Source: Woeseiaceae bacterium
GTDB taxonomy: Bacteria > Pseudomonadota > Gammaproteobacteria > Steroidobacterales > Woeseiaceae
NCBI GenBank assembly: GCA_035304345.1
Contig: DATGQE010000066.1
Location: 60,344-124,343 of the forward strand
Reading direction: 5' to 3'
DNA length: 64,000 bases
The first letter of the stretch is position 1. The number at the start of each line of letters is the position of its first letter. The notes beneath the pieces were generated by a model that was not told the origin of the DNA, did no database searches, and was given only the letters and a program-made list of their open reading frames with translations. The position numbers and the translations under genes are program-made. Below are positions 897-12,913 of this stretch, piece after piece.

Positions 897-2060
897 TTGA
901 ACCCGCCTCTCGAGAGCAAGCTGCCCGGCGTCGGGACGACGATCTTCACGGTCATGACGCAGCTCGCCAACGACTGCGGCGCGCTGAACCTGTCGCAGGG
1001 TTTCCCGAGCTTCGATCCCGATCCCGTCCTGCTCGAGCTCGTCAACCGCCACCTGCACTCGGGGGCCAACCAGTACGCGCCCATGCCGGGCGTGCCGAAG
1101 CTGCGGCAACAGATCGCGGCCAAGGTCGAGCGCCTGTACGGCCGCGCGGTCGATCCCGACCGCGAGGTCACGGTCTGCAACGGCGCGACCGAAGGCCTCT
1201 TCAGCGCGATCCAGGCGCTGGTGCGCCCGGGCGACGAGGTCATCGTGCTCGATCCGGCTTACGACTCCTACGAGCCCGCCGTGACGCTGGCGGGCGGCCG
1301 CACACGCCACCTGCCGCTCGCCGCGGGCGGCCCGGATACGGATTTCCGCATCGACTGGGAACGCCTGGCGGACACGCTGAACGAGCGCACCCGGCTGCTG
1401 ATCCTGAATTTCCCCCAGAACCCGACCGGCGCGGTGCTGTCCGCGGTCGAGCTCGACCTCCTCGCCGACACGCTGCGGGGAACGCCCGTGTACCTGCTCT
1501 CGGACGAGGTCTACGAGCACATCATCTTCGACGGGGTGCCGCACCAGAGCCTGCTCAGGCACGACGAGCTGTGGCGGCGCTCGCTGGTGCTCTCCTCCTT
1601 CGGCAAGACCTGCCACGCGACCGGCTGGAAGGTGGGATACTGCGTGGCACCGCCCGAGCTTACGGCCGAGTTCCGCAAGGTGCACCAGTTCACCTGCTTC
1701 TCGGTCGTGACGCCGATCCAGCACGCGCTCGCCGACTACATGGAGACGGATCCCGATCATTACGCCCGGTTGCCCGCGTTCTACCAGGCGAAGCGGGACC
1801 GCTTCTGCGACCTCCTGCGAGGCTCGCGCTTCCGCCTGCGACCCGCGGCGGGGACTTTCTTCCAGCTCGTCGAATATTCCGGCATCACGGACGAGCCCGA
1901 CGTCGACTACGCGACCCGGCTCACCCGCGAGATCGGCGTCGCCTCGATACCGGTCTCCGTGTTCTGCGAGGAGCCGCCGGAGGGGCGATGGCTGCGCTTC
2001 TGTTTCGCCAAGGACGACGCCATTCTCGAGGAGGCTGCCGAGAGACTATGTCAACTCTAG
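897..2060 (+). CDS. ybdL: PLP-dependent aminotransferase, YbdL-like methionine/glutamine-oxoacid transaminase
   Basis: 387-aa ORF with a TTG start. The N-terminus SKLPGVGTTIFTVMTQLA...LNLSQGFPSFDPDP closely parallels E. coli YbdL. It has a class I aminotransferase layout (SFGKT lysine motif). Confidence 0.85.
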   Translation: MNPPLESKLPGVGTTIFTVMTQLANDCGALNLSQGFPSFDPDPVLLELVNRHLHSGANQYAPMPGVPKLRQQIAAKVERLYGRAVDPDREVTVCNGATEGLFSAIQALVRPGDEVIVLDPAYDSYEPAVTLAGGRTRHLPLAAGGPDTDFRIDWERLADTLNERTRLLILNFPQNPTGAVLSAVELDLLADTLRGTPVYLLSDEVYEHIIFDGVPHQSLLRHDELWRRSLVLSSFGKTCHATGWKVGYCVAPPELTAEFRKVHQFTCFSVVTPIQHALADYMETDPDHYARLPAFYQAKRDRFCDLLRGSRFRLRPAAGTFFQLVEYSGITDEPDVDYATRLTREIGVASIPVSVFCEEPPEGRWLRFCFAKDDAILEEAAERLCQL

Positions 2061-2824
2061 ACGTCATGATCGTGCAGGCGGACCTGCACTGGCACGATCC
2101 CGAGGCCAACCTGCGCGATTTCACGCGCGTGCTCGACGAAGCGGGCACACGAGCGGACCTGATCGTGCTGCCCGAGATGTTCACGACCGGCTTCACCATG
2201 GACGCCGAAGCCAACGCCGAGCGCATGGACGGCAGGTCCGTCACGTGGATGGCGGACACCGCCAGCCGCACCGGTGCCGTCGTGTGCGGCAGCCTCGTGA
2301 TCCGCGATTCGGGCCGGTACTACAACCGGATGATCCTCATGCGGCCGGACGGCAACTTCGACTACTACGACAAGCGGCACCTGTTCCGGCTCGCCGGCGA
2401 GCACCGTTCCTACTCGTCGGGGAGCGAGCTCGTCACGTTCCGCCTGAAGAATTTCCGCATCCGCCCCATGGTCTGCTACGACCTGCGCTTCCCGGCGTGG
2501 AGCCGCAACCGCGGCGACTACGACCTCATCGTCTACGCCGCCAACTGGCCCGCTCCGCGGCACGTCGCCTGGGAGACGCTGTTGCGCGCACGTGCGATCG
2601 AGAACCTCGCGTACGTCGCCGGGGTGAACCGCGTCGGCACGGACGGCAACGGCATCACGTACCGCGGCGGCAGCGCCGTGATCGACTACATGGGCCAATA
2701 CCTCACGCCGGTGACCGAGACGGCCGGTGCCTGGTCGGCTTCGCTCGATCTCGAAAAGCTCAAGGAGTTCCGCGAGAAGTTCCCGTTCCACCTCGACGCC
2801 GATCCGTTCGCGATCGAGACGTAG
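2048..2824 (+). CDS. yafV: Carbon-nitrogen hydrolase, omega-amidase (YafV-like)
   Basis: Internal ATG at 2048 in ORF 1571..2824 (MSTLDVMIVQADLHW...). Motifs LPEMFTTGF, YDKRHLFR, VCYDLRFP and ANWPAPR align with E. coli YafV. It overlaps the ybdL 3' end by 13 nt. Confidence 0.88.
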   Translation: MSTLDVMIVQADLHWHDPEANLRDFTRVLDEAGTRADLIVLPEMFTTGFTMDAEANAERMDGRSVTWMADTASRTGAVVCGSLVIRDSGRYYNRMILMRPDGNFDYYDKRHLFRLAGEHRSYSSGSELVTFRLKNFRIRPMVCYDLRFPAWSRNRGDYDLIVYAANWPAPRHVAWETLLRARAIENLAYVAGVNRVGTDGNGITYRGGSAVIDYMGQYLTPVTETAGAWSASLDLEKLKEFREKFPFHLDADPFAIET

Positions 2825-2913
2825 GGACGTCGCGCTCGACGCGCACTTGGCCTGCGGGAGCGTGCACCGCGCGACTCGCGATTGAAGGGTATCGCCGGTC
2901 GCGAGCGACGCCG

Positions 2914-3777
2914 CTACAGGTCGAACAGGGAGCGGAAGTCGAGCCCGATCCCCCGGAGCTCCCCGTCGGAGCTCACGCGGTAGACGAGCGTCAGGCGATC
3001 GAACCGTAGCCGCCACATGCTGATCGGCGAGTCCGCCTTGTGGATGCCGATCCCTAGCTGCCACTGGTCCCGGATCTGCTCGAAGCGGCGATCCGGCCCG
3101 AACAGCTCGAGCTCGTCCGCGAACCACGTGTACGCGACGTGCCAGTTCACGAACAAGGCCTCCCCCTGCCACTCGCGCGCGCCGAACGGGTAATCGAACT
3201 CGAAGGCGGTCATGACCGGCCAGAAGTTCGACGACGGCCCCTCGCTGGGTGAGTGTCCGACGACGGCCACCGAGTACAGCCAGGACCATCCCAGCCTTCC
3301 CGCGTCCATCCGGTACCGGCTGCGCAGGCCCGCCCACCACGTCCAGGCCGACTCGTCCCCGTTCAGCACCGTACCCCACCCCAGCGCCGCGAACGGCCGC
3401 AGCGTCCAGCGTTCGCTGACCGGGACCTGCACGTGGACCTCGGGCGTGACGCTCACGCTGGCGAAGTTCTCGGGGTCGACGCTGCCCGGGAGATCGTCGA
3501 GCGGAAAGTGCTCCAGGCCCACGGTCACGGGTACCCGCACCTCGAGGCCGTAGTGCCTTTCGCCGCCCGCTATCGACTGCTCACGGACGAGCCGGCGCGG
3601 CGCGTAACGGACGGCGAACGCGTCGCGCGTATCGCCGATGCGGTACCAGCCGGTGCCGAACCAGGTGGAGTACGCCCAGTGAACCGCCTCCGCGTCCACG
3701 GCCTGGGCGCGCACGCCGGCCGGCAGCAGGAGGGCGATCGAGAAAGCGCAAGGAACAAGACGAGCTATGCGTGGCAT
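2914..3777 (-). CDS. Secreted hypothetical protein, probably an outer-membrane beta-barrel
   Basis: 287-aa ORF with a signal peptide (MPRIARLVPCAFSIALLLPAGVRAQA). It is rich in alternating aromatic/hydrophilic strands (W, Y, G, R). I recognise no family. It is divergent from opgG. Confidence 0.55.
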   Translation of the reverse strand: MPRIARLVPCAFSIALLLPAGVRAQAVDAEAVHWAYSTWFGTGWYRIGDTRDAFAVRYAPRRLVREQSIAGGERHYGLEVRVPVTVGLEHFPLDDLPGSVDPENFASVSVTPEVHVQVPVSERWTLRPFAALGWGTVLNGDESAWTWWAGLRSRYRMDAGRLGWSWLYSVAVVGHSPSEGPSSNFWPVMTAFEFDYPFGAREWQGEALFVNWHVAYTWFADELELFGPDRRFEQIRDQWQLGIGIHKADSPISMWRLRFDRLTLVYRVSSDGELRGIGLDFRSLFDL

Positions 3778-3935
3778 CGGCTTTATCTATAATAGTAGAG
3801 CGCACCGACAAGGTGTCTCCTTTCGAAGACAGTCCTTGCCGGTCTCACTGTTCCTCGATGCCGGTTCGGCGCATCAGCCGAACATCGACTTCCCTGTACA
3901 GACTAAGTAATCCACTGCCACAAGGAGGCTGGCAC

Positions 3936-5498
3936 GTGCACGTTATGCAGAAGTCGCTCATGTTCCTGTTGCTCGCCGCGCCGACGATCGCGATGGCGTC
4001 CGCCGTCGTGCAGACCGACCAGGACGTCGATCCGACGACCGGCGAGCGGACGGCGTTCGGCTTCGCCGACGTGAACCGCATCGCGGAGAGTCTCGCACAA
4101 AAGCCGTACGAGCCGGATCGCCCCGAGCTGCCCGAAGGCTTCCGGAATCTCGAGTACGACGATTACCGGGACATCCGTTATCGCGCGCAAAGGAACATCT
4201 GGGTGGACGCGGGGCTGCCGTTCCAGATCCAGCTTTTCCCGCGCGGCTTCCTGTTCCGCGACCGCGTGCGCATCAACGTCGTGGACGACTCGGGCGTGCA
4301 TCCCATCCAGTTCGAGCGCGACATGTTCGATTACGGGCGGAACCAGGTGCCGGCCGAGCTGCCTGCCGACTTCGGGTTTGCCGGCTTCCGCATCCTCTAC
4401 CCGTTGCATCGCGAGGATCGCCTCGACGAAGTCGGCGTCTTCCTCGGGGCGAGCTACTTTCGTGCAATCGGCCAAAACCAGAACTACGGCGTATCCGCAC
4501 GCGGGCTGGCCATCGACACCGGACTCGAGCGGCCCGAGGAGTTTCCGGTGTTCCGCGAATTCTGGATCCAGCGCCCGAAGCCGGACGACACCGCGCTCGT
4601 CGTGTTCGCCCTGCTCGACAGCCAGCGCGCCACCGGCGCTTACCGGTTCATCATCCAGCCCGGCCTGCAGACCGTGGTGGGCGTGAAGGCGCGGCTCACC
4701 TTTCGCGAGTCCGTGGAAAAGCTCGGCGTCGCACCGCTCACGAGCATGTTCTACCACGGCGAATCGACCGATCGCTTCATGGACGACTTCCGCCCGGAGG
4801 TGCACGATTCCGACGGCCTCATCATCGAGTCCGGCAGCGGAGAGCGCATCTGGCGTCCGCTGGCGAATCCGCTCAAGCTGCAGATCACGTCCTTCCAGGT
4901 CGACTCGCCGCGCGGCTTCGGCCTGATGCAGCGCGACCGCGAATTCGCTCACTACCAGGACACGGAAGCCCTCTACCACACCCGCCCCAGCGCCTGGGTA
5001 GAAACGATCGGCGACTGGGGCAACGGGGTCGTGGAGCTCGTGGAGATCCCGAGCCCCAGCGAGCGCAACGACAACATCGTCGCGTTCTGGACACCGGGAC
5101 AGAAGCCGCAGCCCATGTCGCCGTTCGAGTTCGAGTACCGGCTGCACTTCGCGCTCGACCCTGAAGCACGCCTCAAGGGAGGGCGCACCTACGCGACGCG
5201 GATCGGCGCCGGAGGCACCGACGTGCCGATCCACGCGCGCCGGAAGTTCGTCATCGACTTCATCGGCAACTCGGTGGAGCGCCTCGACCCGCAAGCGACC
5301 AACGTCGAAGGAGTGTGCAACACGTCGTCCGGCCGCATCACCGAGCCGGTCGCCCACCACAACCCGTTCCTGAAGGGATGGCGCCTGTTCTTCGAGCTCA
5401 TCCCGCAAGGCCAGCAGCCCGCCGACCTGCGGTGCTTCCTGCGGCGGGACAAGGACATCCTCACCGAGACCTGGGTGTACAAATGGGCACCGAACTGA
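3936..5498 (+). CDS. opgG: Glucan biosynthesis protein G (periplasmic OPG biosynthesis protein)
   Basis: MdoG-family sequence (FGFADV...LAQKPY, FQIQLFPRGFLFRD, RPSAWVE, NDNIVAFW). It has a Sec signal (MQKSLMFLLLAAPTIAMASA). AAGGAGG at 3922-3928 precedes GTG 3936; an alternative ATG lies at 3945. Confidence 0.9.
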   Translation: MHVMQKSLMFLLLAAPTIAMASAVVQTDQDVDPTTGERTAFGFADVNRIAESLAQKPYEPDRPELPEGFRNLEYDDYRDIRYRAQRNIWVDAGLPFQIQLFPRGFLFRDRVRINVVDDSGVHPIQFERDMFDYGRNQVPAELPADFGFAGFRILYPLHREDRLDEVGVFLGASYFRAIGQNQNYGVSARGLAIDTGLERPEEFPVFREFWIQRPKPDDTALVVFALLDSQRATGAYRFIIQPGLQTVVGVKARLTFRESVEKLGVAPLTSMFYHGESTDRFMDDFRPEVHDSDGLIIESGSGERIWRPLANPLKLQITSFQVDSPRGFGLMQRDREFAHYQDTEALYHTRPSAWVETIGDWGNGVVELVEIPSPSERNDNIVAFWTPGQKPQPMSPFEFEYRLHFALDPEARLKGGRTYATRIGAGGTDVPIHARRKFVIDFIGNSVERLDPQATNVEGVCNTSSGRITEPVAHHNPFLKGWRLFFELIPQGQQPADLRCFLRRDKDILTETWVYKWAPN

Positions 5499-7978
5499 TC
5501 GTGCGCCAGCACGCACGAACATTCGACACGAACCGCTTCGACCTCTCGCCGTGGCGGGACGCGCTGCCACGCGTCTACCGGTACCTCCATGCCGCGGGCA
5601 TCGATTCGGACCGCATGCCGTCCGTGCTCGCGGAGATCCAGTCGCGCTTGCAGGCATTGCTGCCGCTGCACGACCACGAGAACCCGGTGGAGATCGCGCT
5701 CGCCGAAACCGCGCAGTGGGTGGAGGAGCAGCGCGAGCGCGCGCAGTTCCGGCGTTCGCCGGCGGCGGATGCGACGCCGGCGAGCGCACCTCTCGACATG
5801 CCGGAGCAGCCGGTCCAGCTCAACGGGCTCGGACGCTCGCGCGGGGAGCAGCCGCCCCGCGGCGGCGGACCGCCCGAGCCGTCTTTCGACGGGCGCGGTC
5901 CGGCACGCGCCATTCGCGGCCGCCGGGCTCTCTTCTTCGGCCTGATCGGCGCGACGACGGCCGGCGCCATCGGGCTGCTCAGCGGCTCCATCCAGCAGGA
6001 CGGCCTGAACCCGCTGGAGCTCCTGCTCGTCATACTCTACGCGGTGCTGTTCGCGTGGATCTGTGCGGCCTTCTGGACCGCGTTCATCGGCTTTTTCATC
6101 AGGCTGTTCGGTATCAGGCGCTGGGATCTCGAGGCGGCTCCCGGCGCGCCCGCGGCCGCCACCGCGCACCCGTCCCGCGACCGGCCGCGCTCGGCGCTCA
6201 TCATGCCGATCTACAACGAGGAGCCGGCGTTCGTGTTCGCACGCCTGCGCGCGATGTGGGAGTCCCTCGCCGCCACCGACGCGGCCGACGATTTCGACGT
6301 GTTCGTGCTGAGCGACACGCGCGATCCGGACATCTGGGTCGAGGAAGAGCTCCGCTGGCAGAAGCTGGTCGACGAGACCCGCGCCCACGGGCGGATCTTC
6401 TACCGCAACCGCCGCGACAACGCCTATCGCAAGGCCGGCAACATCGCCGATTTCGTACGCACGTGGGGCGGCCGCTACCGCTACATGGCGGTCCTCGATG
6501 CCGACAGCCTGATGGCGGGCAGGACGCTTCAGCGCATGGTCGCGATCATGGAGGCGCACCCGCAGGTCGCGATCCTCCAGGTCCCGGCACTGCCGGTGAA
6601 CAACGCGTCGCTGTTCGCGCGCCTGCTCCAGTTCGGATCGGCACTGTACGGCCAGCTTTACAGCGCGGGCATGAATTTCTGGCAGGCCGGCGATTCGAAC
6701 TATTTCGGCCACAACGCACTGATCAGGGTCGAGCCGTTCGCACGGCACTGCGGGCTACCGACCCTGCCGGGACGCCTGCCGTTCGGCGGTCCCATCCTGA
6801 GCCACGATTTCGTCGAAGCGGCGATGCTGCGGCGCGCGGGCTGGGAGGTGTGGACGGCCCATGGCATGGACGGGAGCTTCGAGGAGATCCCGCCGACGCT
6901 CATCGACTATGCCAAGCGCGACCGGCGCTGGTGCCAGGGCAACCTGCAGCACGCGCGGCTGATCCTGGCGAAGGGCTGGCGCGGCCTGAGCCGGCTGCAC
7001 CTCACGATGGGCGTGATGTCGTACCTCGCCTCCCCGCTCTGGTTCCTGTTCCTGCTCGCCGCCGGCATCGACGCGTGGCTCCAGAGCCAGGAGACGCCGG
7101 TCTACTTCTTCGGGCGCAGCCTGTTCCCGATCTGGCCGGCGTCCTACGCGTTCGAGCTCATGACCGTGCTTCTCGTCACGCTGTCCATCCTGTTCCTCCC
7201 GAAGCTGCTCGCGTTCGGGCTGCTGATCGCGGAGCCCGAGCGCTGGTCGCGTTTCGGCGGGCCTGCTCGCGCCGGGGTGAGCGTCGTGCTCGAAAGCCTG
7301 TTCTCGGTGCTCGCCGCCCCGGTGCTGATGCTGTTCCAGACCAAGTTCGTCATCGCGATCCTGCTCCGGCGCAGCATCGGCTGGCCGGCCCAGCAGCGCG
7401 TCGACCGCAGCACGACGCTGTCCGAGGCGATGGTCGCGCACGGCTCCCACGCCGTGCTCGGCGTCGTTGCGGGCGTCGTCACGTGGCGTTACGTGCCGGG
7501 CTTCTTCTGGTGGTTCACGCCGGTACTGGCCGGCATGGTACTCGCGCCCGTGCTGTCGATGGTGACGAGCCGCGCGGACCTCGGCATGGCGGCGCGCCGC
7601 CTGGGCCTCTTCGTCACGCCGCAGGAAGTCGCCCCCGACGAGGTCGTGCAGCGGTACCGCGAGCTCGTGGCCGGGCAGCCCGCCGAGGACGAGATCGGCA
7701 CCTTGCAGCCGCTCTGGCTCGCCGCCCTCCTGCATCCGCGGATTCACGCCCTGCATCGCGACCTGTTGCCGCCCGAGGAGCCGACGCGACACCAGCGCCA
7801 TTACCTGCAGGGGCTCATGTACTACCTCGCCGACCAGTCGGCAGAGGCGCTCAACCACGAGGACCGCCGCGCCATGATTTCCAATCCCGAGTGCCTGGGG
7901 CGCATGCACGTCGGCCTGTGGACGGAATTGTCGATGGAGCGACTGGACGAGATGACCGGGAGGTATGCCACGGCATGA
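5483..7978 (+). CDS. opgH: Glucans biosynthesis glucosyltransferase H (family 2 glycosyltransferase, multi-TM)
   Basis: Internal ATG at 5483 (MGTELIVRQ...). Shows OpgH hallmarks: IMPIYNEEP, VLSDTRDP, RRDNAYRKAGNIADF, LDADSLM, ILSHDFVEAA and QGNLQH, plus C-terminal TM helices. It overlaps opgG by 16 nt. Confidence 0.92.
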   Translation: MGTELIVRQHARTFDTNRFDLSPWRDALPRVYRYLHAAGIDSDRMPSVLAEIQSRLQALLPLHDHENPVEIALAETAQWVEEQRERAQFRRSPAADATPASAPLDMPEQPVQLNGLGRSRGEQPPRGGGPPEPSFDGRGPARAIRGRRALFFGLIGATTAGAIGLLSGSIQQDGLNPLELLLVILYAVLFAWICAAFWTAFIGFFIRLFGIRRWDLEAAPGAPAAATAHPSRDRPRSALIMPIYNEEPAFVFARLRAMWESLAATDAADDFDVFVLSDTRDPDIWVEEELRWQKLVDETRAHGRIFYRNRRDNAYRKAGNIADFVRTWGGRYRYMAVLDADSLMAGRTLQRMVAIMEAHPQVAILQVPALPVNNASLFARLLQFGSALYGQLYSAGMNFWQAGDSNYFGHNALIRVEPFARHCGLPTLPGRLPFGGPILSHDFVEAAMLRRAGWEVWTAHGMDGSFEEIPPTLIDYAKRDRRWCQGNLQHARLILAKGWRGLSRLHLTMGVMSYLASPLWFLFLLAAGIDAWLQSQETPVYFFGRSLFPIWPASYAFELMTVLLVTLSILFLPKLLAFGLLIAEPERWSRFGGPARAGVSVVLESLFSVLAAPVLMLFQTKFVIAILLRRSIGWPAQQRVDRSTTLSEAMVAHGSHAVLGVVAGVVTWRYVPGFFWWFTPVLAGMVLAPVLSMVTSRADLGMAARRLGLFVTPQEVAPDEVVQRYRELVAGQPAEDEIGTLQPLWLAALLHPRIHALHRDLLPPEEPTRHQRHYLQGLMYYLADQSAEALNHEDRRAMISNPECLGRMHVGLWTELSMERLDEMTGRYATA

Positions 7979-9339
7979 ACGACGACAGCCGCTACGAGAC
8001 CACGGCCGTTCTCGACGAGCCGGGCGCCGCCGGCAGCGATCGCTGGCTTTTCGCCGCGTTCCTCGCCGCCCTCGCGCTGCTGGTGTTCCTGGCAGGCTCG
8101 CTGCTGACCGCGGCCGGCCTGCCTCCCGGCCCGCAGGTCGAGCGCGCCTGGCAGGCCGGGCGCGCCTGGTACGCGAAGCTGTTCCACTACGACAACGTGT
8201 ATTTCTCCGACCTCTGGCACGCGGCGCGCACCGAGCGGCGCGGCGTGACCGTGAACGTGCCCGAGCTCGTCAGCCCCGGCGTCACGCTCTACACCTCGGG
8301 CCACGAGGCATCGGCTTTCCTCGTCTCCATGGACGGGGAAGTGCTGCACCGGTGGCACCGGCCGTTCAGCCAGGTGTGGAACGAAACCGCCGCGGTCAAG
8401 GAGCCGCAACCGGATTCCCACGTCTACATGCGCAAGGCCACGCTGCTGCCGACCGGCGAGCTGCTCGCGATCTACGAGGGCGCGGGCGATACCCCGTACG
8501 GTTACGGCCTGGTCAAGCTCGATCGCGATTCGAACGTCGTCTGGAGCTACCTGCAGCCCGCCCATCACGATTTCGACATCGCACCGGACGGAAGCATCTA
8601 CGTGCTCACGCAGGAGATCGTGGAAGAGCCCCTGGCCTCGCTCGATCACCTCGCCTCCCCGAGGCTGGACGACTTCCTCGTCATCCTCTCCCCCGAGGGC
8701 GAGGAGCTGCGCAAGATTCCCCTGCTCACCGCGGTCGACCGGTCCGACTACCGGCAGATCCTGTTCGGCATCTCCTCGTTTGCGCTGGCCGATGCGCTGC
8801 ATACGAACAGCGTGCACGTCATCACCGAGGAGGAAGCGCGCGTGTTTCCGTTCGGCAAGGCCGGCCAGGTGCTGGTGTCCTTCCGCGAGCCGAGCGCGAT
8901 CGGCGTGATCGACCTCGAGCAGGAGAAGCTGGTCTGGGCCGTCAAGGGTTACTGGGCCGCGCAGCACGACCCGCACATCCTGGAGAACGGCAACATCCTG
9001 CTCTTCGACAACAAGGGCCATTTCAACAGGCCGGAAGGCCGGTCGCGGGCCCTCGAGTTCGACCCGAAGACGATGACGCTCGTGTGGCAGTACACCGGCA
9101 CGGCCGAATCGCCCCTCGAGAGCGACATACGGTCGTACACGCAGCGCCTGCCGAACGGCAACACGCTGATCACCGAATCGAACGGCGGCCGCATCCTGGA
9201 AGTCACCGGCGCCGGCGAGCTCGTGTGGGAGTACGTCAACCCGGTGCGGGGCGGTCCGGAAGGCCAGCAGATCCCGATCATCTGCAAGGCACAGCGGCTG
9301 GACGCCGCCGTGCTGGGCCCCTTCCTGAAGGGGGCGTGA
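7975..9339 (+). CDS. Arylsulfotransferase (ASST)-like beta-propeller protein with an N-terminal membrane anchor
   Basis: Only the last 454 codons of ORF 5551..9339 look coding. The ATG at 7975 overlaps the opgH stop (ATGA). There is a TM segment (WLFAAFLAALALLVFLAGSLL). Repeated propeller motifs typical of ASST-family proteins are present: HHDFDIAPDGSIYVL, HTNSVHVI, QHDPHILENGNILLFDN and LPNGNTLITES. Confidence 0.75.
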   Translation: MNDDSRYETTAVLDEPGAAGSDRWLFAAFLAALALLVFLAGSLLTAAGLPPGPQVERAWQAGRAWYAKLFHYDNVYFSDLWHAARTERRGVTVNVPELVSPGVTLYTSGHEASAFLVSMDGEVLHRWHRPFSQVWNETAAVKEPQPDSHVYMRKATLLPTGELLAIYEGAGDTPYGYGLVKLDRDSNVVWSYLQPAHHDFDIAPDGSIYVLTQEIVEEPLASLDHLASPRLDDFLVILSPEGEELRKIPLLTAVDRSDYRQILFGISSFALADALHTNSVHVITEEEARVFPFGKAGQVLVSFREPSAIGVIDLEQEKLVWAVKGYWAAQHDPHILENGNILLFDNKGHFNRPEGRSRALEFDPKTMTLVWQYTGTAESPLESDIRSYTQRLPNGNTLITESNGGRILEVTGAGELVWEYVNPVRGGPEGQQIPIICKAQRLDAAVLGPFLKGA

Positions 9340-9440
9340 CAGGCGTCATGGCACGCGTATTGCAGCGGTTGCCTTCGCAGCCGCAATTCGAGGCCGGAGG
9401 CGCCGTCGGTCGGCGCGCGGCCGGAAGGGAGTCATCGGCT

Positions 9441-9731
9441 ATGGACAAGCGAATCATCGGCGCCGCCGGCGCCCTGTTTCTCGTGCCCGCGACCGCGGCC
9501 GCTTACGTCGGCCCGGGCGCCGGCCTGTCGTTGCTCGGCGCGTTGTGGGCCCTGCTCGTGGCCCTCGGCACGGCGCTCCTGTTCATCATCGCCTGGCCGG
9601 TGCGGCGCATCCTCAGGCGCAAGCGCCAGGACAGGGCGCGCGCGGCGCGCGACCGGGAACGGGAACCGACCCGGGAAGAGGATACGGCGCACGGCGAAGG
9701 CGACGAGCCGCTGCCGTCGAAGCGGCCTTGA
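9441..9731 (+). CDS. Small membrane protein, unknown function
   Basis: Internal ATG at 9441 preceded by GGAAGGGA. The 96-aa product has two hydrophobic segments around a YVGPGAG motif, then a highly charged tail (RRILRRKRQDRARAARDREREPTREED). GC3 bias is consistent with coding. Confidence 0.5.
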   Translation: MDKRIIGAAGALFLVPATAAAYVGPGAGLSLLGALWALLVALGTALLFIIAWPVRRILRRKRQDRARAARDREREPTREEDTAHGEGDEPLPSKRP

Positions 9732-10453
9732 GCCGGGGCCTGTTCGACCTGCCTGCCCCGCTGTTCGACTGGGTCGACCGGCATCTTTTCGCGTCCCTGC
9801 CCGCGGCGGCGGCGGTCGCGGTGTGGGCGCTGCTCGCGGGCGTCGCCACCCTGGAGCTCTACCGGCTGCTGTCGCCGCAGGCACGCATCGAGCGGCTGAA
9901 GCACGCCACGCGAGAAGCCCAGCAGCGACTGTCGGCGTACGACGGTGATCTCGACGGGGCCTGGCCCCTGATCAGGCGGCTGCTGGGCGTTTCGCTACAG
10001 CGCGTCGCCATAGTGCTCCCGGCGACGCTCGTGGCCGCCTACCCGGTGATCGCCGTGCTGGTGTGGGCGAGCAACACCTGGGGTCACCACTTCCCCGACG
10101 ACCCCGGCAGTGTCGCGGTCACGGCAGAGGCGCCCTTCGACGCGCGCTGGGTCGCCGCCGCCGGGGAGGCCCCACACGTGCAGGCGCGCACGCCGGGAGG
10201 CGAGCTGGTGCTCGACCGGCCCGTGGCCGTGCCCGTCACCGTCCTGCACAAGCGGGAATGGTGGAACTGGCTGGTGGGCAACCCGGCCGGCTACCTGCCG
10301 GCGGACGCGCCGGTCGAGCGCATCGACATCGACCTGCCGCGCCGCGAGCTGTTCGCGGCCGGGCCCGCGTGGCTGCGCGGCTGGGAAGCGGTGTTCATCC
10401 CCGTGCTGTTCGTGTCCGCGCTGGCGTACAAGGCCATCCGGCGCATTCACTGA
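9728..10453 (+). CDS. Membrane protein, unknown function
   Basis: TTG at 9728 overlaps the upstream stop (TTGA). There are about three TM segments, a predicted amphipathic/coiled stretch (SPQARIERLKHATREAQQRLSAY) and a soluble loop. I recognise no family and the start is uncertain. Confidence 0.5.
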   Translation: MSRGLFDLPAPLFDWVDRHLFASLPAAAAVAVWALLAGVATLELYRLLSPQARIERLKHATREAQQRLSAYDGDLDGAWPLIRRLLGVSLQRVAIVLPATLVAAYPVIAVLVWASNTWGHHFPDDPGSVAVTAEAPFDARWVAAAGEAPHVQARTPGGELVLDRPVAVPVTVLHKREWWNWLVGNPAGYLPADAPVERIDIDLPRRELFAAGPAWLRGWEAVFIPVLFVSALAYKAIRRIH

Positions 10454-10458
10454 CAGCG

Positions 10459-11589
10459 ATGTCGAGCACCTCGCGCACGGCCACCGAACGCAGGCTCAGC
10501 GTGGCGCGCTGGACCGATTTCCTGAGCGGCCTGCAGGAACGCCATCCCGCGTTCTGGATCCGCCTCGGCAATCTCGAGACCCGCATGCTGGGCGAGGACG
10601 TCGCGGGAGTGCCGATCGAGAAGCCGATCTGGGTCACCGGCCTCGCCCGTTCCGGCACGACGATCCTGCTCGAGCTCCTCGCCCGGCACCCGGCGCTCGT
10701 GACACACCGCTACCGCGACTTCCCGCCGGTGCTCACGCCGTGGCTGTGGAACTGGTTCGTCGATCGGGCCGCCACGCACGACGAGGAGCCGGCCGAGCGC
10801 GCACACGCCGACGGCATCCTGGTGACGCCGGAAAGCCCGGAGGCGTTCGAGGAAGTGATCTGGATCGCGTTCTTCCGGTCCCTGCACGATCCCCGTGCGA
10901 GTGCCGAGCTCACCGAGGAAACGGAAAATGCCGGGTTCGAGGACTTCTACCGCGACCACATGCGCAAGCTGCTCAGGCTGCGCGGCGGCCGCCGTTACCT
11001 CGCGAAGGGGAACTACAATCTCACCCGCCTGCGTTACCTGCTGAAGCTGTTCCCCGACGCGCGATTCGTGGTCCCGGTGCGCGAGCCCGTCGCGCACGTC
11101 GCCTCGCTCATGCGCCAGCACGCGCGCTTCGTCGAGGAGCACCGCCGGGACCGGCGCCTGCAGCGCCACATGAGCCGCAGCGGTCACTTCGAGTTCGGGC
11201 TCGACCGCAGGCCCGTCAACTGCGGCGACACGGCGGTCACGGAGCGGGTGCTCGAGCTGTGGGAGCAGGGACGCGAGGTCGAGGGATGGGCGTTGTACTG
11301 GAACGACGTGTACGGCCACCTGGCCGCCTCGCTCGACGCGCACCCCGCGCTCCGACGCGCCACCCTGGTCGTGAGCTACGAGGCGCTGTGCGCCGACCCG
11401 GGGCCCGTCATGCAGGCGGTGCTCGATCACTGCGAGCTGCCGCGGGAGGGTCCCGACCTCGTCGCGCTCGCCCGCGACGTCATCCGCCCGCCCTCGCCGC
11501 CGCGCCTGGCGCTCGACGGCGCCGCCGTCGCGCACATCCGGGCCGTGACCGGGGACGTCATGGCCGCCCTGGCGAGAGCGGCCGCGTGA
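10459..11589 (+). CDS. Sulfotransferase family protein (PAPS-dependent type, cytoplasmic)
   Basis: ATG at 10459, 5 nt after the upstream stop. It has a 5'-PSB-like loop (WVTGLARSGTTILLELL) and a 3'-PB-like R-x7-S (VREPVAHVASLMRQH). There is no signal peptide. Confidence 0.75.
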   Translation: MSSTSRTATERRLSVARWTDFLSGLQERHPAFWIRLGNLETRMLGEDVAGVPIEKPIWVTGLARSGTTILLELLARHPALVTHRYRDFPPVLTPWLWNWFVDRAATHDEEPAERAHADGILVTPESPEAFEEVIWIAFFRSLHDPRASAELTEETENAGFEDFYRDHMRKLLRLRGGRRYLAKGNYNLTRLRYLLKLFPDARFVVPVREPVAHVASLMRQHARFVEEHRRDRRLQRHMSRSGHFEFGLDRRPVNCGDTAVTERVLELWEQGREVEGWALYWNDVYGHLAASLDAHPALRRATLVVSYEALCADPGPVMQAVLDHCELPREGPDLVALARDVIRPPSPPRLALDGAAVAHIRAVTGDVMAALARAAA

Positions 11590-11700: not shown

Positions 11701-12192
11701 ATGGACACCGCGTGGATACAGGTTTTCGTGCTCACCCTGAGCGAATGCGTCGCTCCCAGCGGCAAGACCGTCTGCCAGGAGCAGGAAACGCAGTACGTGT
11801 TTTTCGACCGGCGCGACTGCGAGGCTGCGCTGCAGGCCTTCATCGAGTCGAAAGCGAACGACGAGACCGTGATCGTCAACCCGGATCGCTCGCGCTGCCT
11901 GCCGTCTGCCCGGCAGCGGGAAGTCTTCGCGACACTCGAGGAAGCGAACCAGCAGCTCGCGGACCTCGAGGGGTGGGGGATCTTGGCCCCAGGCCAGGAG
12001 CACGACCAGGCCGGCGGTGAGGCCGCCGATTCCAGCCGCATGGCGTATCTCGACCGGCTGCAGAGCCTGCCGGAATGCGACGCCCAGCGCTCGGTCACCC
12101 CCTGCAAGGTCGGCCAGATCATCGTGGAGGGCCCGCCGGAGCAACGGGAAATCCCGGTCTGGCGCAAGCAGGACCCGAAGCAGGACCATTAG
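11701..12192 (+). CDS. Hypothetical cysteine-containing protein
   Basis: ATG at 11701 with GGGAG 7 nt upstream. The 163-aa ORF has high GC3 and 6 Cys residues. I recognise no family. Confidence 0.45.
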   Translation: MDTAWIQVFVLTLSECVAPSGKTVCQEQETQYVFFDRRDCEAALQAFIESKANDETVIVNPDRSRCLPSARQREVFATLEEANQQLADLEGWGILAPGQEHDQAGGEAADSSRMAYLDRLQSLPECDAQRSVTPCKVGQIIVEGPPEQREIPVWRKQDPKQDH

Positions 12193-12236: not shown

Positions 12237-12554
12237 TCAGCGGCTCGACAGCCGCAGGAGCAGGATGCCGGAGACGATCAGCGTCGCGGCAAGGATGCGC
12301 ACCGCGCTCGCCGATTCCCCGAGCACGACGATCCCGAGGACGAAGGCGCCGACGGCCCCGATTCCCGTCCACACCGTGTAGGCGGTGCCGAGCGGCAGCG
12401 ACTTCATCGAGGCCGCCAGCAACGCGAAGCTCGCGAGCATCGCCACCACCGTGACCGTCGACGGCCACGGTTTCGTGAAGCCGTTCGACAGCTTCATGAA
12501 GAAAGCCCAGACGACTTCCAGCACACCCGCGGCGAACAGCATTGCCCAGGCCAT
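12237..12554 (-). CDS. sugE: SMR-family transporter, SugE/Gdx-type (guanidinium/quaternary cation exporter)
   Basis: 105-aa protein with four TM helices. MAWAMLFAAGVLEVVWAFFMK contains the conserved membrane Glu. The layout is typical of SugE. Confidence 0.9.
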   Translation of the reverse strand: MAWAMLFAAGVLEVVWAFFMKLSNGFTKPWPSTVTVVAMLASFALLAASMKSLPLGTAYTVWTGIGAVGAFVLGIVVLGESASAVRILAATLIVSGILLLRLSSR

Positions 12555-12818
12555 ACGATCTCCTCGCTCGACAGGAGCGACCGGCACCGCGGTGCCGGCG
12601 CGCTCGAAACGCGACATCATAGCCGACATCCGTGCCGCGTCCGGCGGGCATGCATCGCCCGTTCGCGGGCGTCCGCGTCGCGTGAGCCGCGGCCGGGCGG
12701 GCGTTCGGGAAAACGGGTCACGCCGGCGGCACGGCGGGCCCGTGGCTCGATCGGGGATGGGGTCGCCGGCACGCGCGAGACGGCGCGAGCGGAATCGAAC
12801 CGGATCGTCAGCGCGGGG

Positions 12819-12913
<95 letters not shown>

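Follow-up and report, generated by a model that had tools for sequence, protein, structure and literature searches.

A conserved four-gene cassette for candidate two-step envelope sulfation, joined to opgGH in a Woeseiaceae bacterium

The operon for the osmoregulated periplasmic glucan (OPG) proteins OpgG and OpgH in a Woeseiaceae bacterium runs on into four further genes whose products may together sulfate the cell envelope. These genes lie in a stretch of 64,000 nucleotides, hereafter the window, from assembly GCA_035304345.1 (contig DATGQE010000066.1, positions 60,344 to 124,343 of the forward strand). The module (7975-11589) consists of an arylsulfate sulfotransferase (ASST)-like protein, two membrane proteins termed TM96 and TM241, and ST3, a sulfotransferase of the type that uses 3′-phosphoadenosine 5′-phosphosulfate (PAPS). 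We propose, with confidence that stands near the halfway mark, that these four proteins carry out a two-step sulfation across the inner membrane for which the β-1,2-glucan of OPG is the most probable acceptor.

Organization of the operon

Six open reading frames (ORFs) on the + strand between 3936 and 11589 give clean, stop-free translations and are separated by overlapping or short junctions:

3936-5498, +: opgG, a periplasmic glucan protein of the MdoG/GH186 family (PF04349) with a Sec-type signal peptide
5483-7978, +: opgH, a polytopic membrane glucosyltransferase (MdoH, glycosyltransferase family GT2; NF003958 and GT2 Pfam matches)
7975-9339, +: the ASST-like gene, Cpz4-like, PF14269, a six-bladed beta-propeller
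9340-9440, no strand: a spacer of 101 nt with a ribosome-binding site, lacking a terminator or significant RNA structure
9441-9731, +: TM96, a 96-aa protein with a signal peptide ending in AxA, the motif Y[VI]GPGAG and one transmembrane helix
9728-10453, +: TM241, a 241-aa membrane protein with three transmembrane helices, a coiled-coil hairpin and a beta domain
10459-11589, +: ST3, a PAPS-type sulfotransferase (Sulfotransfer_3), predicted to be cytoplasmic

The junctions are of the kind expected for translational coupling, as an earlier note on this DNA had described. Specifically, opgG and opgH overlap by 16 nt (opgH ATG at 5483, opgG stop at 5496-5498), the opgH TGA (7976-7978) shares an ATGA with the start of the ASST-like gene at 7975, TM96 and TM241 overlap through TTGA (9728-9731), and only 5 nt separate TM241 from the ST3 ATG at 10459. 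The 101-nt spacer carries a ribosome-binding site (GGAAGGGAG) ahead of TM96; it shows no significant RNA fold (z -0.5) and no Rfam match. That note had also seen no hairpin followed by a T-run between the genes, and indeed a terminator scan finds no such site inside any intergenic spacer of 3936-11589. The sole nearby + strand match (9459-9473) falls within the TM96 ORF, and the six terminator-like matches in total are within the shuffle expectation of 4.4 +/- 2.6.

The first two genes have the makeup of an opgGH backbone operon, in which an MdoG-family protein with a signal peptide is followed by a polytopic GT2 MdoH. The opgG product, whose N-terminus is hydrophobic, matches PF04349 over its full length (1-478 of 478, E 4.5e-195), and the co-oriented opgH product directly downstream scores 839.7 bits against NF003958 (cutoff 419). 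OpgG and OpgD are β-1,2-glucanases of family GH186 (PMC10514313). AGGAGG is present at 3923-3928 ahead of opgG, whose start is ambiguous between GTG 3936 and the in-frame ATG 3945.

Two sulfotransferases of different types

Both its motifs and its profile score mark ST3 as a PAPS-dependent sulfotransferase. The protein matches Sulfotransfer_3 (PF13469) with an E value of 1.9e-22 and 81 bits (cutoff 27), and it has no signal peptide. Its 5′-phosphosulfate-binding loop GLARSGTT (residues 61-68) and 3′-phosphate-binding element R208-x7-S216 are both kept in 59 orthologues and can be aligned with 2zq5, a mycobacterial structure. Among solved proteins, the nearest to ST3 are 2zq5 and 2z6v, both mycobacterial, and, weakly, TPST1/2 (E 0.003-0.05).

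The ASST-like protein belongs to a second type. It matches Arylsulfotran_2 (PF14269; E 2.8e-28, 99.6 bits, cutoff 27) and, with a lower score, PF05935 (E 1.7e-8, 34.3 bits, cutoff 24.2), and its large and tightly conserved family comprises 2528 matches, the best at 60-83% identity, with Woeseiaceae as the nearest named relatives. An AlphaFold2 model (pLDDT 78.6) is a six-bladed beta-propeller. When this model is compared by Foldseek, the Cpz4 entries 9kf4 and 9kf6 rank on top (E 1.7e-16, TM-score 0.56, 20% identity) and generic propellers rank below them. Pfam and Foldseek agree on a beta-propeller of the Arylsulfotrans clan, and the type is that of Cpz4 (PF14269), not that of Escherichia coli AssT (PF05935). 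Cpz4, a PAPS-independent enzyme of caprazamycin formation, takes its sulfate from the phenolic esters that Cpz8, a PAPS-dependent enzyme, produces (PMC4257720). These results uphold the ST3 motifs, the Sulfotransfer_3 assignment and the ASST family membership put forward in the earlier note; PF05935, which the note had named together with relatives, gives way to the Cpz4 type.

Five residues of the ASST-like protein (H198, H276, N278, R304 and H331) are invariant in 21 homologues and are candidates for catalysis. In a profile alignment by hhalign to the E. coli enzyme (EcAST), H331 in the motif W-x-x-Q-H-D-P pairs with His436, the sulfohistidine, and R304 with Arg374, but this alignment is weak (E 9e-4, probability 23%) and was returned by the local and extended modes only, with none from the global mode. 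Two further resemblances were matched by eye: the context of EcAST H356/N358 (AHVNSI) resembles the invariant LHTNSV (HxNS), and that of H252 (THE…PNG) resembles the invariant HHD…PDG (H[DE]x4P[DN]G).

Might the propeller have another function altogether, such as glucan binding or glycan processing, with its pairing to ST3 serving some other chemistry? The Arylsulfotran_2 name is backed by very few characterised members, sequence and profile searches of the protein against the PDB return no match, so that Cpz4 is reached by structure comparison only and at the modest identity and TM-score given above, and the EcAST alignment has a low probability. This explanation nevertheless leaves aside the invariant His, Asn and Arg residues in motifs that match EcAST active-site contexts, as well as the constant linkage to a PAPS-type sulfotransferase with APS-kinase-like and sulfatase genes near, and we consider it improbable.

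An N-terminal transmembrane helix (approximately residues 24-47) is itself conserved in the ASST-like protein, which suggests that the protein makes contacts within the membrane. Among the 21 homologues, the flanks of this helix contain one to five Lys or Arg residues on the N-terminal side and one to three on the C-terminal side, such that an N-in orientation is weakly favored.

Two uncharacterised membrane proteins

TM96 is small but strongly constrained. All 55 sequences compared, that of the window and those of 54 orthologues, carry the motif Y[VI]GPGAG, and the preceding predicted cleavage region has Ala at position -1 in every one and at -3 in 54. Because of this invariant A-x-A | Y-[VI]-G-P-G-A-G arrangement, mature TM96 is predicted to begin with Tyr at the outer face of the membrane. 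After the motif come one transmembrane helix, a stop-transfer cluster rich in Arg and Lys, and a variable tail with a net charge of about +5.

The TM241 model is of high confidence (pLDDT 92.3) and contains three transmembrane helices, a basic coiled-coil hairpin (approximately residues 51-92) and a beta domain (approximately 120-202) that carries the invariant motif K-x3-WN-x-L-x3-P-x-GYL. By the positive-inside rule, the hairpin is probably cytoplasmic and the beta domain periplasmic. Neither TM96 nor TM241 has a credible Pfam or NCBIfam family, and a Foldseek comparison of TM241 with the PDB yields no significant fold match (best E 0.07). A resemblance to Oxa1/YidC was considered for TM241, with its succession of transmembrane helix, coiled coil and two transmembrane helices, and was dropped given this E value and a TM-score of 0.17. 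A TM241 profile search of the sequence library collects 879 representatives at 50% identity.

One metagenomic ORF of 721 aa (P0312; L093:28-2193) unites TM241 (1-242) with an ST3 homologue (approximately 340-721) through a low-complexity linker; the fusion may be genuine or may have arisen through loss of a stop codon. At three other loci (L020, L022 and L057), TM96 and TM241 can be translated together as a single uninterrupted ORF (323 aa). These are not taken as established fusions because the NCBI annotation of Inquilinus limosus lists a 240-aa protein separately.

A TM241-like membrane module also occurs in a different setting, at the C-terminus of a 967-aa protein (P0305; L094:4494-7397) with a Phosphodiest domain of the alkaline-phosphatase superfamily. 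The next gene there encodes a sulfatase that includes an SGSH_C domain, and in front of the P0305 gene lies a divergent radical SAM/SPASM gene. With this locus, the TM241-like family is found in a second sulfate-ester context, distinct from the first.

The invariant Tyr raises the question of whether TM96 is itself the product, a tyrosine-sulfated small membrane protein or peptide comparable to RaxX modified by RaxST, with ST3 acting like a TPST and the ASST-like protein editing or recycling the sulfate. The presence of Tyr at the predicted mature N-terminus of all 55 sequences would fit, as would the weak similarity of ST3 to TPST1/2 and the translational coupling of TM96 to TM241. TPST substrate sites typically have acidic residues flanking the Tyr, however, and TM96 lacks them. 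Moreover, this proposal does not say what would always keep together two sulfotransferases that differ in mechanism and act on opposite sides of the membrane, nor does it account for the recurring glucanase, APS-kinase-like and sulfatase neighbors. We rate it slightly below the already improbable idea of a propeller with an unrelated function.

An autonomous cassette joined to opgGH in one lineage

To survey the four genes more broadly, one genome per species was scanned, which yielded 80 loci, and tblastn searches with the proteins of the window then gave their gene order. Approximately 57 of the 80, distributed among Alpha-, Gamma- and Deltaproteobacteria, keep the succession ASST-like, TM96, TM241, ST3, and the arrangement is also present on metagenomic contigs. 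Cultured hosts include Inquilinus limosus, Ferruginivarius sediminum, Chelativorans and Paroceanicella profunda. In the last of these the genes reside on plasmid pD4M1B, where they are annotated only as arylsulfotransferase family, hypothetical, hypothetical and sulfotransferase. An MdoG gene adjoins the cassette in Ferruginivarius sediminum WD2A32 and Chelativorans xinjiangense lm93, as do APS-kinase-like and sulfatase genes in Inquilinus limosus DSM 16000. The literature that we searched contains no description of the four-gene arrangement.

In-line fusion to opgG-opgH occurs only in the window and in two related contigs, L008 (79% identity) and L088 (78%), which together form a small Woeseiaceae-like subclade, and relatives at 70-73% identity do not have it. 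The four genes are thus an autonomous, self-contained cassette rather than an opg accessory as such, and in one lineage the opgGH operon has taken up this widespread putative sulfation cassette.

The ASST-like gene also stands alone at approximately 20 loci. Loci with no TM96, TM241 or ST3 nearby include L013-L016, L037, L051, L054-L060 and L063; Salinicola, Litchfieldella and one Virgifigura copy are among them. A metagenome-assembled genome (MAG) of Kiloniellaceae (L070) has tandem ASST-like copies (200-1516 and 1943-3289) flanking TM96.

Glucan and sulfur genes adjoin the cassette

For 55 cassette loci, flanking genes were called by a codon-usage model trained per locus and the immediate neighbors were scanned against Pfam. 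Full-length, solo MdoG/GH186 genes (E approximately 1e-186 to 1e-191) directly adjoin the cassette in four lineages, represented by L019/L023, L028, L053 and L080. Their orientations differ, being divergent in L019/L023, on the same strand with an 82-nt gap in L028, and convergent in L053 and L080, and the genes beyond them are unrelated housekeeping genes. Similarly, two Desulfobacteraceae loci (L071 and L073) have PF10091 proteins just downstream that are homologues of GH144 (endo-β-1,2-glucanase 5gzh, E 1.7e-55). By rough arithmetic, immediate adjacency to a glucan gene would be expected at about 0.1 locus in 55 by chance, versus the 8 loci in 6 lineages observed. The glucan-linked loci sit in separate clades of the ASST-like protein, each of which has close relatives that are unlinked. 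Downstream neighbors of 810 aa in Pelagibius and Kiloniellaceae (L070, L079 and L080) that were considered as candidates for the 'Glycoamylase' (PF10091) matches are DAO/GCV_T dehydrogenases and were rejected.

Genes for sulfur metabolism also occur beside or near the cassette:

L020/L022, 9098-9877: APS-kinase-like protein of Inquilinus limosus (PF01583)
L029, 13543-14310: APS-kinase-like protein of Chelatococcus caeni (PF01583)
L020, 13554-15077: sulfatase of Inquilinus
L022, 13546-15060: sulfatase of Inquilinus
L010, 5699-7126: sulfatase of a Woeseiaceae MAG

The proteins resembling adenosine 5′-phosphosulfate (APS) kinase are 256-260 aa long and have a P-loop (PF01583 E 4e-14 to 4e-17); they lie in line with the cassette in Inquilinus and Chelatococcus and may represent a dedicated sulfate-activation enzyme. 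The classic APS-kinase P-loop pattern gives no match to them; their loop reads GLPGAGKT, and the L029 protein has an additional weak C-terminal match to CTP_transf_like. The sulfatase gene is directly downstream of the cassette in Inquilinus, where the SGSH_C domain is confirmed for L020, and 2.9 kb upstream in L010.

These neighborhoods bear on the most serious competing explanation, in which the two-step sulfation is retained and the acceptor is something other than glucan, for example sugars of lipopolysaccharide or capsule, a lipid, peptidoglycan or a small periplasmic molecule. The opg, GH186 and GH144 neighbors would then reflect shared osmotic or envelope-stress regulation, or plain genome neighborhood. 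Most cassette loci indeed have no glucan genes, the cassette travels as a unit among unrelated contexts that include a plasmid, and Sulfotransfer_3 enzymes such as NodH modify other glycoconjugates (PMC11625862). This account must contend, however, with three different β-1,2-glucan families that directly adjoin the cassette in six lineages and three orientations, whereas no other acceptor-related family recurs beside it. Specifically, the HAD and Exo_endo_phos neighbors are mostly the synteny of single clades (a seven-member HAD cluster and all ten Exo_endo_phos genes), with three further HAD neighbors in a Thalassobaculum-like group. We judge a non-glucan acceptor to be unlikely, even if it is the strongest of the competing accounts.

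The same neighborhoods speak against a role apart from envelope glycans, such as the scavenging or detoxification of environmental phenols and aryl sulfates that is the usual guess for enteric ASSTs. It is true that natural ASST substrates are not known and that small phenolics are the standard in vitro (PMC13426309). Such a role would nevertheless leave a cytoplasmic PAPS enzyme coupled to membrane proteins with nothing to do, and it explains neither the fusion to a biosynthetic operon nor the glucan-enzyme neighbors. We regard it as very improbable and as the least favored of the explanations considered here.

A proposed relay of sulfate across the inner membrane

The presence of two membrane proteins together with a membrane anchor on the ASST-like protein implies a relay across the membrane. 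In the sulfation pathway that we favor, ST3 would use cytoplasmic PAPS as the source of a sulfuryl group and transfer that group to a membrane-associated phenolic carrier, which might be the invariant Tyr at the N-terminus of processed TM96 or a membrane quinol. TM96 and TM241 would form a membrane core that binds ST3 at its cytoplasmic side and exposes the aryl sulfate at the periplasmic side. The anchored ASST-like protein could then pick up the sulfuryl group on H331, as the candidate catalytic His, by a ping-pong mechanism and pass it to a sugar hydroxyl of a periplasmic acceptor. Cpz4 likewise prefers sugar hydroxyls as acceptors (PMC13426309). For the window, the acceptor is most probably the OPG β-1,2-glucan backbone because the cassette is translationally coupled to opgGH and because glucan neighbors recur elsewhere.

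The boldest form of this proposal is that the cassette is a machine that moves activated sulfate over the inner membrane, from PAPS through ST3, a membrane phenol and the ASST-like His to a periplasmic glycan, and thereby makes sulfated OPG. The membrane phenol would be either the processed TM96 N-terminal Tyr held by TM241 or a quinol. We advance this full version only tentatively and consider it possible rather than probable.

The earlier note had likewise placed a cytoplasmic PAPS step before a periplasmic ASST step. That sequence of events gains from the Cpz8/Cpz4 precedent, from the lack of a signal peptide on ST3 and from the transmembrane helix of the ASST-like protein, whereas the framing of the genes as opg accessories does not stand. 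Its linkage to opgH, in turn, proves to be confined to three closely related contigs, yet glucan enzymes adjoin the cassette in at least six lineages.

Several observations weigh against the favored pathway. The profile alignment between the ASST-like protein and EcAST is weak, and the equivalences of H198, H276 and N278 were drawn by eye. Periplasmic placement of the propeller is inferred from a weak positive-inside bias and from analogy. At approximately 45 of the 55 cassette loci, no glucan gene lies closer than 10 kb. One metagenomic ORF alone carries the TM241-ST3 fusion, which could be an artefact of assembly or of a stop codon. Likewise, in agreement with what the earlier note had stated, the searched literature holds neither a description of sulfated OPG nor experimental evidence for it. 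Finally, the carrier is a guess because the cassette encodes no enzyme for carrier biosynthesis comparable to the type III polyketide synthase (PKS) Cpz6; the cassette itself, its flanks in the window and the immediate neighbors at the 55 loci all lack such a gene. A protein Tyr that served as carrier only once would be costly.

Genomic context of the operon

A possible seventh gene follows the cassette:

11701-12192, +: a Cys-rich protein of 163 aa whose N-terminus is hydrophobic; no Pfam match

This gene starts 112 nt after ST3 on the same strand, and homologous DNA lies 3′ of the cassette in L008 only. Its membership in the operon is uncertain and would be lineage-specific. Convergent to the operon end are an SMR-family transporter gene (12237-12560, − strand) and tRNA-Ser(GGA) (12823-12913, − strand). 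The downstream part of the window encodes, in addition to the 163-aa protein, the SMR gene and the tRNA, DapA, a BepA-like protein, and Mla and Suf genes, and an aminotransferase and a CN-hydrolase are encoded upstream of the operon. The remainder of the window is core chromosome, and the ORFs tested there include no sulfate-activation genes.

Divergent from opgG is a gene (2914-3777, − strand) for a protein of 287 aa that has no Pfam family and whose N-terminus resembles a signal peptide. The 158-nt intergenic region between this gene and opgG contains an exact TATAAT at 3788-3793. A scan for sigma-70-like promoters returned none that passed.

Significance

ASST-type enzymes of bacteria were already known decades ago, and PAPS is confined to the cytoplasm. 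A route for periplasmic sulfation in Gram-negative bacteria has been puzzling for this latter reason. The natural donors, acceptors and roles of bacterial ASSTs are still called poorly understood (PMC13426309). The cassette, with a PAPS enzyme, two membrane proteins and an anchored Cpz4-like enzyme, offers a concrete route of this kind, and it defines two uncharacterised protein families, TM96 and those like TM241.

If the acceptor is OPG, then sulfate would join phosphoglycerol, phosphoethanolamine and succinate as a substituent of the glucan. OPG would thereby gain a new substituent class, and a proteobacterial ASST-type enzyme would for the first time be matched with its physiological donor and acceptor. 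Sulfate on OPG would also provide an anionic substituent without a phosphorus cost. Such a phosphorus-free decoration is plausible because many of the named host taxa are marine or saline, as judged by names and isolation sources.

Comparison with known systems

The closest parallel is the Cpz8/Cpz4 pair that acts together with Cpz6 in the formation of caprazamycin and liposidomycin in Streptomyces. There, as in the window and at approximately 57 loci, PAPS-dependent and ASST-type enzymes are encoded together, and the ASST-type enzyme of the cassette has the Cpz4 fold, its best Foldseek match. The cassette differs in that the window lacks a type III PKS that could supply a pyrone carrier, and two conserved membrane proteins and an anchored ASST-like protein are found instead. 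Furthermore, its host is Gram-negative, its setting is primary envelope metabolism rather than an antibiotic cluster, and identity to Cpz4 is only 20%.

A more distant likeness is to the AssT-DsbL-DsbI system of E. coli (PF05935; PDB 3ELQ). Both enzymes are beta-propellers that share the HxNS motif, AssT being PAPS-independent and the cassette protein presumably so, and His436 and Arg374 of AssT align, if weakly, with the invariant H331 and R304. Unlike AssT, the cassette enzyme belongs to PF14269 and lacks both the N-terminal beta-sandwich domain and Dsb partner genes. In addition, AssT is soluble, whereas the cassette enzyme is membrane-anchored and paired with a PAPS enzyme.

With regard to glucan decoration, the opgGIH-opgC operon of Rhodobacter sphaeroides places a decoration function in line with backbone genes (Cogez et al. 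2002, as cited in PMC10514313). The substituent proposed here would resemble those added by that system and by E. coli OpgB, OpgC and OpgE in being anionic and in needing delivery to the periplasmic face. OpgB and OpgE belong to the alkaline-phosphatase superfamily and OpgC to the acyltransferase_3 enzymes, whereas the four cassette proteins have no such Pfam or NCBIfam match. To our knowledge, sulfate has not been recognized as an OPG substituent.

Finally, ST3 resembles NodH and the mycobacterial 2zq5/2z6v proteins in its membership in Sulfotransfer_3 and in its PAPS-binding motifs (PMC11625862). Those enzymes act alone and directly on a final cytoplasmic acceptor, whereas ST3 is always accompanied by an ASST-type partner and two membrane proteins.

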